Positions 2,934 through 9,143 of a stretch of 64,000 nucleotides of DNA are shown in pieces (positions within the stretch are counted from its first letter, which is position 1; the number at the start of each line of letters is the position of its first letter). The notes beneath the pieces are model-generated. The model was not told the origin of the DNA, searched no databases, and saw nothing but the letters and a program-made list of their open reading frames with translations. The DNA is from Trueperaceae bacterium (GTDB lineage: Bacteria; Deinococcota; Deinococci; Deinococcales; Trueperaceae). The stretch spans positions 704,001-768,000 of the forward strand of contig CBDCDZ010000004.1 of the NCBI GenBank assembly GCA_965215565.1, given 5' to 3'. The position numbers were made by a program, and so were the translations under genes.

Positions 2934-3062
2934 GTTTTTGCTCCTTCTCATTGATATCTACGCCAAACGGTGTTGTTGCTCGCTGCACTCTAAGTCTAAT
3001 CCAAATCCCTCATCATGCGTTTTGAAACTCCCTGCTCAGTAACACCACATAACACTATTACT

Positions 3063-3086
3063 TAGCATGCTTTGGCATGCTACTAT
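3063..3086 (+). promoter_or_regulatory. Inverted repeat TAGCATGC-TTTG-GCATGCTA carrying two GCATGC sites and overlapping an extended -10 (TG-C-TACTAT)
   Basis: Read directly: GCATGC at 3065-3070 and 3075-3080; TG at 3078-3079; TACTAT at 3081-3086; in-frame ATG at 3091. Confidence 0.7.
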
Positions 3087-3090
3087 TCTA

Positions 3091-3390
3091 ATGGTGCGAT
3101 GGAGTAGGCAAAGAAGCAACGCGGAAGCGTTAATGGTTAAAATTCTGTCGGAAAGTCAAGTTCCTATGTCTTTGAAAGAAGTTATTACACAAATTAGAAA
3201 GCTCGACTCAGACGCTTTTCAGGGAAAAACGCCTGAAAAATCACTGTATTCCGTCATCTATCGCAGGGAAAGGAAAAGAGAAAAGCTCCAGAAGACGTCG
3301 GCGTTTATCATTGAGAGAAGGTATGGGGCAACGCTATACAAGCTCAATCCTCAGTTCAACACTTCCGAAGCTGGCGAACAGATAGCGTGA
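3091..3390 (+). CDS. Stand-alone HARE-HTH (HB1/ASXL/restriction endonuclease winged HTH) protein
   Basis: AEALMVKILSESQVPMSLKEVITQI...GKTPEKSLYSVIY matches the HARE-HTH pattern (..IL......M...EI...I......GKTP..S/T+...+Y). The ORF is open from 3067; start uncertain (3067, 3091 or 3133). GTGA overlap with the MTase. Confidence 0.72.
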   Translation: MVRWSRQRSNAEALMVKILSESQVPMSLKEVITQIRKLDSDAFQGKTPEKSLYSVIYRRERKREKLQKTSAFIIERRYGATLYKLNPQFNTSEAGEQIA

Positions 3391-4304
3391 CAAAACCCGA
3401 AAGAATACCGCACGTTATCCCGTATCAAGGGAGTAAGAGGAAGCTTGCACGATCTATTTTAAGTCACATCTCTTTTGATGCCGACGTTTTTTTTGAACCT
3501 TTCGCTGGTTCAGCAGCCACAACGATTGCAGCAGCGACAAGTGATGTGGCAAATTCATACGTTATATCCGACAAGCTGAAAGTATTGACTGATTTATGGA
3601 GCATGATCGTTGATAGTCCTGATGAACTGATTCAAGAATACACCTGCCTCTGGGAGTCACAACTGACTGACCCCAAAGGCTTCTATCACCAAACTAGAAA
3701 AGCGTACAACCGAAACCCTACAGCACCAGCCTTTCTTTATCTCGTGGCTAGGTGTGTCAAAAATAGCATACGCTTCAATAGACAGGGCGACTTCAACCAG
3801 GGACCCGACAACCGCCGCTTAGGAATGAAACCGTCCAAGCTGGCTAAAGAAGTGCGAGCAACCGCTGAGCTTTTGAGAGGGAAAATTTCAGTTAGGCACG
3901 GAGATTTTCAGGATGTATTAGAAAGCGCGACGGAGAATGATGTCGTTTACCTAGACCCTCCTTGGCAAGGAACGAGCAAGAAAAATGATCCGAGATATGC
4001 TTACCTGCTAGAACTCGGTAAGTTAGTTGAAGAACTCAGCTTCCTGAATCAGCGCGGCGTTCCTTACTTGCTGAGCTTTGATGGTTCATGCGGTGATAAG
4101 GTCTACGGCGCGTCTCTTCCGCCTTGGCTCAACCTCGAAAAGGTAGCTCTTAAAGCGGGACGTTCAAGTCAAGCAACACTTCTTGGACGCAACGATGAAA
4201 CTGTTGAATCGTTGTATTTATCGCCTGCATTAGTGCAAAAGAAACGGGCTTTAGAGGAAAACACTATCCCGGAGCGGACCATGTTGTTCGAGCAACCGGC
4301 TTAG
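3387..4304 (+). CDS. Dam-family (alpha class, D12) N6-adenine DNA methyltransferase
   Basis: N-terminal IPYQGSKRKLA, motif I FFEPFAGSAA, and motif IV YLDPPW (DPPY variant). Confidence 0.92.
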   Translation: MTKPERIPHVIPYQGSKRKLARSILSHISFDADVFFEPFAGSAATTIAAATSDVANSYVISDKLKVLTDLWSMIVDSPDELIQEYTCLWESQLTDPKGFYHQTRKAYNRNPTAPAFLYLVARCVKNSIRFNRQGDFNQGPDNRRLGMKPSKLAKEVRATAELLRGKISVRHGDFQDVLESATENDVVYLDPPWQGTSKKNDPRYAYLLELGKLVEELSFLNQRGVPYLLSFDGSCGDKVYGASLPPWLNLEKVALKAGRSSQATLLGRNDETVESLYLSPALVQKKRALEENTIPERTMLFEQPA

Positions 4305-5032
4305 TTATCTTCTTGCTCCAAAGTCCTTTTGAGAGTTTCTTTTATGTAGCTCTGTACGGAGCGGTCTGACCGAGATGCACGTTCAGAGAGTCGTTCGTAA
4401 TCTTCTACCTCCTCGCTTTGCCAGACGATGTCGACTCGCCTTTCCTCTTTCGTGGCAACGTGCGTGTAACTCTCCGGGAATGCCCAGTAGCATCTTCGGC
4501 AGATTTCAGGGTCTTTCAGACTGATCAGATTTTCGCAGTGTTCGCACGACCATGATTTCTGTCTTTGCGACGTTCCTGTTAAGAGCATAAAGGCGTCTAA
4601 GTCGTCCTCGTTCGATACATTATCTCCAATAACTTCGTAGGGAATGCGGTGATCAATTTGAAGGTAACGCGGCTGGTATATCTCGTTTGTAATCGCTCCC
4701 CTGCTCCCATACTTTTCCACAAGGGCGTTCTTGAATTTTTTGGAGAAGGTTTTACGCCCTCCCAACTTGTGACGCTCTACATCGCTCGGATTACCGAACC
4801 TGTAAGCGGCTATCTTGCGCCCATCACGTCCTGTTACTTTGAACGTCTCTATTGGGATACCCTGTTCACGCACATCTCGGACAGCTCGAGGTGGATGATT
4901 GTATCCGTAGTCATCTTTGAGCTGCTCAGTAGTTATAGAACCATGCGCAATAATGTGGTCAATAACTGTTCTCGCACGTTTGGCTGTAACTTTCCTCGCA
5001 GCCTCTAAAATTCGCTCGTCAACTTTTGTCAC
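4301..5032 (-). CDS. HNH-type Type II restriction endonuclease, SphI-like
   Basis: GY.HPPRAVRD, LQIDHRIPY, KSWSCEHCEN...C..CYWA.PE.YTHV closely resemble R.SphI as recalled. Adjacent to an m6A MTase. Confidence 0.75.
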   Translation of the reverse strand: MTKVDERILEAARKVTAKRARTVIDHIIAHGSITTEQLKDDYGYNHPPRAVRDVREQGIPIETFKVTGRDGRKIAAYRFGNPSDVERHKLGGRKTFSKKFKNALVEKYGSRGAITNEIYQPRYLQIDHRIPYEVIGDNVSNEDDLDAFMLLTGTSQRQKSWSCEHCENLISLKDPEICRRCYWAFPESYTHVATKEERRVDIVWQSEEVEDYERLSERASRSDRSVQSYIKETLKRTLEQEDN

Positions 5033-5091
5033 GAGGTATTGTTACTCGAGCTGGACCAACAATCAACACACGAATAGCGCGACAAGTCAAT

Positions 5092-6444
5092 CTATCCTCT
5101 CATAGGCTCTTTCAGCGCCGCCCTAACCGCCTCACCCAGCACCCCCATCCCCTCATCAATCTCTTCATCCGAGAGGTTCAAGGGTGGCAGCAACCGGATA
5201 CAGTTGCTGTAGAGCCCCGCCCGCAAGATGATGAGCCCACGCTTCAAGGCTTCGGCGGTGATGTCTACCACCTCTTGCGCCGTAAGCGGTTTCTTCCCCG
5301 CTCTATCCCGCACGAACTCAACCGCCAACATCGGACCTAAGCCCCGCACGTCACCGACGGATTCGTGTTCGTTTTGAAGCCCTCGGAGGTGTTCCCGAAA
5401 GCGTTCGCCGACTCGGTTCGCACGTGCTAAAAACTCCGGCGCTTGAATCATCTTGACCGCTTCAATCGCCGCTGCACACGCTAGAGGATTGCCGCTGTAC
5501 GTCCCGCCCAACCCACCAGGATGCGGCGCGTCCATCAGTTCCGCTTTGCCGATGACCGCCGAAATGGGCATCCCTGCGCCTAAAGATTTTGCTGTCGTCA
5601 AGAGGTCAGGCGTCACGCCGTAATGCTCCACCGCAAAGAGCTTGCCCGTGCGCCCCATCCCGCACTGAATCTCATCAGCGACCATCACCATGCCGTGCTC
5701 CGTGCAGAGTTCGCGGATGCGCTTTAAGAACTTGGGCGGCGTCGGCAAGAAGCCCCCTTCACCCTGAACGGGTTCGATAACGACAGCGGCGACGGCGCTC
5801 GGGTCCACCTGGGCGATGAAGGCGTGCTCGAGCTGCGCAATCATATAATCCACATACTGCTCATCCGTCATGCTCTCTGGGCGGCGGTAGAGGTTCGGGA
5901 AGGGCAAGCGGTAAACTTCAGGTGCAAACGGCGCAAACCCTTTTTTGAACAGCGCGTACTTGCTCGTCATTGTCAAGGTTAGGTTCGTACGCCCGTGATA
6001 CGCGCCCTCGAAGACGACGATGCCGGGGCGTCCCGTGTATGAACGGGCAATGTTGACCGCCGTCTCGACGGCTTCCGCGCCGCTGCTCATAAAGGTGGCT
6101 TTAGTCTCGCCTGCAATTGGCGCAACCGACGTTAGTAATTCAGCAAGCTCCACCATCGGCTCAGAAGTTGCAACGATGCCGCAAGGATGAATGACTTTAT
6201 CCACTTGGTTTTTAATCGCGGTGACGACGCTCTTAGGTGTATGCCCAACCGCCAACATGCCGATGCCGCCCGCGAAGTCTAAAAGTGTATTTCCGTCTGC
6301 GTCGGTGACGGCTGCGCCATGGGCGCGTTCAACAGCGATGGAGGTGAGTTTCGCTGCGCCTCTTGGCGTGACCGCTTCTCTGCGGGCGACGATAGCGCGA
6401 CTTTTCGGTCCGGGAATCTCGGTGATGAGGTTGATGGTGGGCAT
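5092..6444 (-). CDS. gabT: 4-aminobutyrate aminotransferase (class III PLP)
   Basis: DFAGGIG, SGAEAVE, YHGRT, EPVQGEGG, DEIQCGMGRTG, PLP lysine in AKSLGAGMP, and GGTYSGNP. Confidence 0.88.
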   Translation of the reverse strand: MPTINLITEIPGPKSRAIVARREAVTPRGAAKLTSIAVERAHGAAVTDADGNTLLDFAGGIGMLAVGHTPKSVVTAIKNQVDKVIHPCGIVATSEPMVELAELLTSVAPIAGETKATFMSSGAEAVETAVNIARSYTGRPGIVVFEGAYHGRTNLTLTMTSKYALFKKGFAPFAPEVYRLPFPNLYRRPESMTDEQYVDYMIAQLEHAFIAQVDPSAVAAVVIEPVQGEGGFLPTPPKFLKRIRELCTEHGMVMVADEIQCGMGRTGKLFAVEHYGVTPDLLTTAKSLGAGMPISAVIGKAELMDAPHPGGLGGTYSGNPLACAAAIEAVKMIQAPEFLARANRVGERFREHLRGLQNEHESVGDVRGLGPMLAVEFVRDRAGKKPLTAQEVVDITAEALKRGLIILRAGLYSNCIRLLPPLNLSDEEIDEGMGVLGEAVRAALKEPMRG

Positions 6445-8156: not shown

Positions 8157-9143
8157 TCAGCTCGAATGCCCTAAAACATCGAGAGGTACAGACAATCGTC
8201 CATGTACATCCAAATCTTCCAAAAACTCAGACCAACAACGCTTCTTTACTCGTAGTTCGCAGTAACATCCAGCTTGCAGCATGAAGGCGAAAAGCGTTTT
8301 GTACAAGTCCTCGAGAAACTGCTCTAAATCTTCTTCTTTGACATCTCCGTAAGACAAATAAAGCGCATCTCTGTAGTTGGCTTTTCCGCGGTACCTAAAA
8401 GCTTGATTCAAAAAGCAAATGGTCTTTCCTGAAAGTCTTTCGTCTCTAATTTCTTTCGCTACATTCTTACGGAAATTCTGGACACCTAACTTCTTGAACT
8501 CGCCACCTCTTCTTATATCCTCCTCTGCCTTCCCACGCTCATAGTCAGCCGTGCCCTTCAAATAGGCGAGACAAGCTCCAACTGCTTCTTCTCTATTTGA
8601 AGGAATTTCTTGTCCTATGTGAAAAGAGCTTCCCAAATTTCTGATTGCCTCTTCGTACTCACTCCTTACAAGTGTATCGAGTCTCCACGCGAAAGGGCTG
8701 CTAATGTAACGTTTCTTAGCAATGTGTGCATCCCAAGCTTTAGCCGTTTTTGCGTGCGTTTCCTGCGTTGAACCATCAGAAGCAGCGACCATAGCTTTAG
8801 CCGAAAAATAAATTCCGTAGTACCAAGAAACTATCGCTATCCGGGCAAGGTCGTACGAGCAGTTGACATCTTTCATCACGTAGAGTGAAGAGAGGTTTTG
8901 TAACGCCATGAATGTGTATTCACAAACAGTAGTATCTGCATTATCACTAGCTGGGTTGCGGAGATTGACTTTGCTACTGAGAGAAGAGAAGAGGAAATTT
9001 CTGTCAATATTCTCTTCATCACAAAGTATGGAAAGACCTCTCAGCCAACCCACCGTTCCTCGAAAGGCAAATCCAGGTGCAACTTTGGAGTCGGCACTTT
9101 TCAGGCGTCGAAAAAGCCACTGAGGTCGTAAAACAATCTTCAC
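8157..9143 (-). CDS. Low-GC hypothetical protein with HEPN-like motifs
   Basis: 328 aa with AT-richer codon usage. WYYGIYFSAKAM...ETH and RGKANY resemble HEPN YY..F..AKA...H and R-x4-Y/H motifs. Confidence 0.55.
   Translation of the reverse strand: MKIVLRPQWLFRRLKSADSKVAPGFAFRGTVGWLRGLSILCDEENIDRNFLFSSLSSKVNLRNPASDNADTTVCEYTFMALQNLSSLYVMKDVNCSYDLARIAIVSWYYGIYFSAKAMVAASDGSTQETHAKTAKAWDAHIAKKRYISSPFAWRLDTLVRSEYEEAIRNLGSSFHIGQEIPSNREEAVGACLAYLKGTADYERGKAEEDIRRGGEFKKLGVQNFRKNVAKEIRDERLSGKTICFLNQAFRYRGKANYRDALYLSYGDVKEEDLEQFLEDLYKTLFAFMLQAGCYCELRVKKRCWSEFLEDLDVHGRLSVPLDVLGHSS

Follow-up and report, generated by a model that had tools for sequence, protein, structure and literature searches.

This locus raises the question of what a stand-alone HARE-HTH gene does at the head of a methyltransferase operon whose predicted promoter carries two copies of the predicted cognate site, GCATGC. 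The locus was found in a stretch of 64,000 nucleotides from a Trueperaceae bacterium, which is called the window here. Coordinates are those of the window. The three genes concerned are called H, M and R.

The cassette and its two enzymes

From its genes, the cassette is a predicted SphI-family type II restriction–modification (R-M) system, in which H and M form an operon and R is convergent to it. H (3091–3390, + strand) encodes a stand-alone winged-helix (HARE-HTH) protein of 99 aa, the candidate controller. M (3387–4304, + strand) encodes a D12-class (Dam-like) N6-adenine methyltransferase of 305 aa, and R (4301–5032, − strand) encodes an SphI-family HNH restriction nuclease of 243 aa. H overlaps M by GTGA (3387–3390), and M and R overlap by 4 bp at their convergent ends. 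An earlier note on this DNA had described the coupling of H to M and the convergent nuclease gene, and the coordinates confirm both. M is a Pfam D12 match (PF02086, E 9.5e-30) and is also matched by NCBIfam dam and PADLOC MTase_II; the motif FFEPFAGS, followed by DPPW, is visible. The genes of the nuclease and the methyltransferase are separate, adjacent and intact, as in type IIP systems.

R is matched by PADLOC REase_II (E 5.8e-49) and Pfam HTH_39. It has an N-terminal winged helix, D127-H128...Q156, two CxxC motifs and a ribbon-helix-helix-like tail. The nuclease had been said to resemble R.SphI, and the comparison bears this out: counted by hand, about 43% of the positions (81 of 188 columns, without the linker and the ends) are identical to the R.SphI sequence in the supplement alignment of PMC2441816. 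In this alignment of the HNH family (Orlowski and Bujnicki 2008), R aligns with SphI from the N-terminal region through the HNH and Cys motifs, whereas the first CxxC of SphI is not kept here. D127, H128 and four Cys residues are invariant in 101 nuclease rows. All 20 of the 20 H-linked nucleases have Q156 as the last HNH metal ligand, whereas this ligand is N in SphI and in 78 of 81 relatives without H (Q in the other 3 of 81). KpnI has Q at this place. In a FastTree tree of R, the H-linked nucleases do not form one group. The R tail (4301–4400, − strand) gives weak FitA-like and RelB-like matches below the cut-off, and is possibly a dimerisation element.

According to PMC6191088, SphI recognises GCATGC and is blocked by m6A. 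From the likeness to SphI, the specificity of M and R is very probably GCATGC. Because the site has one A per strand, an m6A enzyme for GCATGC must give GC(m6A)TGC, and this is the predicted product of M.

The window contains just two GCATGC sites, both upstream of H, where 17.8 are expected. The 4.49-Mb genome contains 25 against about 507 expected from a Markov model (O/E 0.049), and GCATGC is its third most avoided hexamer. ACATGC (530), GCATGT (613) and ACATGT (355) are common and not depleted; thus, the avoided word is GCATGC and not RCATGY. Genome G005, which has the cassette, contains 14 sites. Two same-genus genomes that lack M and R by the queries used contain 112 and 29, so that avoidance is seen there too; two other members of the family contain 1018 and 1117. 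Five hosts of other relatives contain 2 to 454, and the host of locus L001, described below, contains 432. As the same-genus genomes without M or R also avoid the site and the hosts are mixed, genome-wide avoidance is weak as proof of specificity and was rejected as such. The genome strongly avoids many palindromic hexamers, namely GGCGCC (O/E 0.015), GAGCTC, CAGCTG, TTTAAA, ACGCGT, CCCGGG, CTTAAG and CCATGG, and CTCGAG is over-represented (1.34). This avoidance suggests many past or present R-M systems.

The cassette is flanked by an aldehyde dehydrogenase-like gene on one side and an aminotransferase-like gene on the other. Its GC content is 0.44–0.48 against 0.59, and its GC3 is 0.45–0.49 against 0.68–0.69. 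In two same-genus genomes both flanks match and the cassette is absent, with gaps of about 0.5–0.6 kb at this spot. The lower GC than in the flanks and the absence from the same spot in these two genomes indicate that the cassette is an insertion, and the inserted segment was placed at 2946–5092. H is present in 3 of 301 genomes of the order, and the E. coli genomes gave no DNA match to the cassette. In G005 (C1:3069252–3071245), a transposase gene interrupts the nuclease gene, and H, M and the paired sites are intact; the nuclease of G154 is whole. Another insertion may be present in the window at 8157–9143 (− strand), where an ORF of 328 aa with no obvious family by eye lies between aminotransferase-like and amine oxidase-like genes.

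The paired sites and the H-M promoter

Upstream of H, TAGCATGC (3063–3070) is followed by TTTG and GCATGCTA (3075–3082), and TACTAT (3081–3086) comes directly after the second GCATGC. The two GCATGC sites occupy 3065–3070 and 3075–3080, which agrees with the spacing of exactly 10 bp that had been read in the earlier note. The dyad TAGCATGC-N4-GCATGCTA (3063–3082) is a predicted operator and a predicted substrate of M, and it places both sites in the spacer of the predicted H-M promoter. The extended −10 of this promoter is TG-C-TACTAT (3078–3086, + strand), whose TG comes from the second GCATGC. The overlap had also been proposed before, and it is backed by TAnnnT directly after the second site in 20 of 23 non-redundant promoters (mean match to TATAAT, 4.1 of 6); in locus L110 the hexamer is TATAAT itself. 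The predicted −35 position is TTACTT (3058–3063, + strand), 17 nt before the −10. It was placed by T enrichment, as T is the commonest base at −7 and −6 from the first site (18/23 and 13/23 promoters). The −35 is weak, with a mean match to TTGACA of 1.9–2.5 of 6 in the 23 promoters. A plain sigma-70 scan did not pick up the predicted extended −10. With the specificity taken from SphI, a cognate site overlaps a core element of the predicted methyltransferase promoter, an arrangement of the AhdI/CfrBI type.

Across the H loci, the start codon follows the −10 at anything from 4 to 35 nt, whereas the distance from the pair to the −10 is constant. Because the pair and the −10 are locked together while the start-codon distance varies, the paired element belongs to the promoter. 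It is almost certainly a cis-regulatory element of the H-M promoter. The two sites are also the only GCATGC sites within 50 bp of each other in the genome. At the genome density, the probability (p) that a given 100 bp contains two sites is about 1.5e-7, a value that overstates the case because the cassette is foreign DNA.

The claim of the earlier note depended on the paired sites being conserved at homologous loci. When metagenomes were scanned with the H alignment, 29 loci were obtained, which were chosen by the H protein and not by the DNA motif. M is directly downstream of H in all 29 (in one of them, the first codons of M only), and R is convergent wherever it is seen. GCATGC-N4-GCATGC is upstream of H in 28 of the 29 loci. 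The other, L108, has a single site, which looks like the result of a deletion between two sites leaving a perfect palindrome. The pair is also present, with other flanking genes, in G005, in G154 (another genus) and on an Arsenophonus plasmid; it is the sole one of its kind in the G005 genome and in the G154 genome. The arrangement is preserved among distantly related bacteria. Taking all H loci besides the window, the pair is kept in 31 of 33, with one single site (L108) and one locus with none. The latter, L001, is from a Bacillota bin, in which the H and M genes and the convergent R are kept and no GCATGC occurs in its 3852 bp. After removal of near-copies, the 23 promoters have invariant GCATGC cores and 20 different spacers.

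For the control, the best 80 of 305 nuclease relatives in genome contigs were used. By profile search of the fetched flanks, 79 of these and two plasmid loci lack H. The pair is found in none of these 81 loci, and a single site lies within 150 nt of M in 1 of the 79 with at least 100 nt upstream. Conservation of the pair, as the note had expected it, thus holds at the loci with H. The genes are tandem (M-R) in 78 of the 81 and convergent in 3. On a quick tree of the methyltransferases (109 rows long enough), the 30 H-linked enzymes form one side of a single branch (SH-aLRT 98). Since they form one clade, H and the pair may have become linked a single time and may have stayed so. In the sister loci on this tree, L023 and L098, R is preceded by an XRE-type gene, and H and the pair are absent.

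No relatives of H or M were found in viral contigs. Viral contigs with the paired motif number 17, and in none of them does H, M or R lie within 1.5 kb; the motif by itself is therefore no marker of the system. Two viral contigs (L134 and L142) contain short tandem arrays of 10-bp units that include GCATGC, and these too have none of the three genes close by.

A second operator at the R promoter was considered and rejected, because no GCATGC is found upstream of R in any H locus that has the start of R. A delay of R would be indirect, for example via convergent transcription, and this is speculation. Upstream of R (5033–5050, − strand), CTCGAG-n-AA-n-AAT is shared with L126 and L149 at 5–8 nt before the R start, and may be a weak leaderless −10.

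The H protein and its possible action

The ATG of H at 3091 is backed by a conserved N-terminal M-x-W-x-R; the product called in the database is a shorter form of 74 aa. The ORF at 3091 had been assigned to HARE-HTH in the earlier note, and it passes the Pfam profile PF05066 narrowly, with 26.1 bits against a cut-off of 25.9. Among the aligned members of the H family, 110 of 115 match PF05066 at E ≤ 0.01. By the HARE-HTH profile criterion, the best Atlas match of H is 0.95. H is the only HARE-HTH match in its genome, and it has no XRE match in Pfam or NCBIfam. A homolog search with the single shortened sequence returned itself alone, and an alignment was needed as the query. The alignment-based search gave a family of at least 130 small proteins (50–174 aa). 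When the length limit was removed, 82 of 83 representatives were 41–164 aa and the other was a weak match in an 830-aa protein. The median pairwise identity of H is 45%, and L19, G45, S51, L52, Y53, S54, R58 and R63 are invariant in 115 members. Hardly any variation is seen in the third helix, S51-L-Y-S-x-x-Y-R-R-E-x-x-R63. Stand-alone H-like proteins of a distant subgroup (alignment A4, P0164–P0194) have this helix changed, to R-x-N-x-R-R.

The model of H (pLDDT 82.6) consists of three helices and a beta hairpin, a winged helix. The best fold matches are forkhead, histone H5 and PadR domains with middling Z scores (top match: Z 8.7, rmsd 3.0, 82 aligned), and nearly all the top ones are winged-helix. 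The N-terminal domain of B. subtilis delta is among the matches (2krc, Z 6.8, rmsd 3.8, 86 aligned), and the DpnI winged helix is absent among the matches listed. Foldseek with the model gave no match at E ≤ 0.001, and the PDB contains no sequence relative of H. HARE-HTH domains are described in PMC11037411 as having an extra short helix inside the helix-turn-helix; the DSSP line of the model has no helix at residues 39–47, where a one-turn helix could be hidden. A derivation of H from the winged helix of R was rejected, as the probability of profile likeness is 0.1%.

Wherever the interpretation in the earlier note was open to computation, the outcome supported it. Its mechanistic core is an inference: methylation of GCATGC by M, binding of the pair by H, and dependence of this binding on methylation. 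Our preferred, tentative reading is a feedback in which methylation of its own promoter by M would allow H to bind the pair and turn down the H-M operon. In a new host, the H-M promoter would be unmethylated and active, and M would be made early. M would then methylate the GCATGC sites, among them the pair within the spacer of its own promoter. The methylated pair would be bound by H as two winged-helix units on the same helix face. Bound H would cover the spacer and the extended −10, and H-M transcription would drop to a maintenance level. Replication, through hemimethylation, would loosen H again. That H binds the pair at all is probable. Once binding is granted, a preference of H for the methylated state, with repression, is the outcome we expect with some reserve. 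We also lean slightly towards H being a stand-alone HARE-HTH transcription factor that reads the m6A of its own system on a doubled cognate site, which would found a further class of R-M regulators.

Several features argue for a methyl-reading H. The pair is restricted to H loci, its cores are invariant while the spacer varies, and the third helix of H is near-invariant. The sister loci with an XRE gene in place of H have no pair. GCATGC has its one A per strand in an ApT step, and the winged-helix domains described in PMC11037411 read fully methylated ApT in one pocket, with tandem sites raising the activity. M.EcoRII, according to PMC12707154, represses its own gene only if the substrate sites are methylated. 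On the other side, H is retained in L001, where there is no site, and L108 carries a single one, and HARE-HTH domains are considered in PMC11037411 more likely to be readers of modified cytosine.

L001 would suit a different arrangement of the kind known from AhdI and CfrBI, in which RNA polymerase at the extended −10 is directly affected by methylation, or by bound M or R, and H has another task, for example binding M, R or RNA polymerase like delta. We regard this as unlikely. The template-strand A of the second site is opposite the T of the extended −10 TG, and m6A there could act on RNA polymerase without H. The AhdI site overlapping the −10 halves transcription without C protein in the experiments of PMC2275141, and the delta domain is among the fold matches of H. 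However, AhdI and CfrBI use one site, and here two are held at a fixed pitch of 10 bp. The H-less relatives also have no pair (0 of 81) and hardly any single site near M (1 of 79).

Another reading, which we consider unlikely, makes H an ordinary autorepressor whose binding to the dyad is indifferent to methylation, and explains the match to the R-M site by history. The conservation of the dyad over the promoter of H itself and the near-invariant recognition helix would be explained in this way. The left arm also keeps a TA that mirrors the right arm (21/23 and 20/23) and lies beyond what the sigma-70 consensus explains. A methylation-blind repressor, however, would not need a core that is the exact predicted cognate site in 23 of 23 promoters. 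As H has no profile likeness to the winged helix of R, inheritance of the specificity from R is unsupported.

The weak −35 would fit the opposite sign, in which H binds the unmethylated pair, activates the poor promoter and is evicted by methylation. Activators that bind in the spacer exist, namely the MerR family, but a protein on the extended −10 more often blocks polymerase, and the two GCATGC sites overlap this element. A further point against activation is that the methylated state is preferred by the prokaryotic winged-helix sensors characterised in PMC11037411, and we consider this reading quite unlikely.

The arms of the dyad co-vary outside the core. The third and fourth flanking positions are complementary in 14/23 and 15/23 promoters, against 5.9 and 6.8 in shuffles that ignore the relatedness of the promoters; four pair types occur at each position, and the count is 39 against 15–20 in slid controls. 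This co-variation would fit equally well with a hairpin, with the symmetry of an operator and with mutational correction of the repeats, such as the template-switch correction of quasi-palindromes. In a last reading, very improbable to us, the element would extrude as a DNA hairpin or cruciform and thereby control the promoter, perhaps under the influence of methylation, with H secondary. The predicted hairpins (−7.8 to −12.5 kcal/mol) and the CfrBI site, which PMC12707154 also places within inverted repeats, would allow it, but the 6-bp cores never change, so that sequence matters, and the repeat in the window reaches only 2 bp past the cores.

Comparison with known systems

A 2025 review gives four ways of transcription control in type IIP systems, namely promoter methylation, MTase-fused repressors, antisense RNA and C proteins (PMC12707154). 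In the account of the review, none of the four is a separate protein that reads the system's own mark. AhdI, CfrBI and LlaDII likewise have a cognate site in the methyltransferase promoter, and AhdI is likewise convergent with a site overlapping the −10 (PMC12707154, PMC2275141). As these systems are described, methylation acts on RNA polymerase directly, and one site is used in AhdI and CfrBI, whereas here two sites and H are present. The descriptions of AhdI, CfrBI and LlaDII in these sources include no co-transcribed reader protein, and in AhdI the regulator, a C protein, is encoded by the other operon. For LlaJI, epigenetic control is named in the title of a reference. M.EcoRII, M.SsoII and M.Ecl18kI likewise repress their own genes, by a repressor domain fused to the methyltransferase (PMC12707154). 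In contrast, the system here has a separate winged-helix protein, an m6A methyltransferase and a predicted operator that is a doubled cognate site.

C proteins (PvuII, BamHI, AhdI and Esp1396I) share with H a small DNA-binding gene that is translationally coupled to an R-M gene, and a dyad over their own promoter. They are XRE-type helix-turn-helix proteins. They bind C-boxes, whereas H is winged-helix and has a dyad built of the restriction site. C proteins typically lead the nuclease gene (PMC12707154), and H leads the methyltransferase gene. Tested as a C protein, H has a similar layout and a conserved dyad, but differs in fold (no XRE) and in position (before M).

DpnI, HhiV4I and the wH fusion nucleases have the winged-helix fold, the ApT core and tandem sites in common with the H system (PMC11037411). 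They are described there as nuclease fusions that read G(m6A)TC, whereas H is stand-alone. HARE-HTH domains are reported as fused to nucleases and methyltransferases, and the reading of modified bases was proposed from this domain architecture. In the literature searched, which also included PMC4738411, PMC3874152, PMC5920184, PMC3695507, PMC10853773, PMC12839542 and bioRxiv 10.64898/2025.12.04.692298, as far as the text of these sources was available, no controller of SphI and no dedicated reader protein for promoter-methylation feedback were found. No stand-alone HARE-HTH controller was found in the same literature, outside which Aravind and Iyer 2012 and REBASE fall. Promoter-methylation feedback itself is known from AhdI and CfrBI, and the H regulator family is apparently undescribed.

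If the methyl-reading of H is correct, the promoter would learn the genome's methylation state through H. HARE-HTH domains would then also have a natural ligand of modified DNA with a defined sequence, of which none was found in the literature searched. The HARE-HTH family includes the N-terminus of human ASXL1, and the locus offers a 99-aa protein and a 20-bp predicted ligand for the idea that this family reads modified DNA. Synthetic epigenetic circuits could also make use of a small m6A-dependent repressor with a defined site.

The SphI family appears here in three layouts: mostly tandem M-R with no regulator seen, an XRE gene with R, and H with M and the paired sites. They form a natural comparison of regulatory designs. 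At least five tandem methyltransferase genes without H, among them L004, L006, L007, L009 and L075, have a −10-like hexamer close before the start codon. It is located 6–7 nt before the start in L006, L007, L009 and L075, and its closeness suggests leaderless transcripts.
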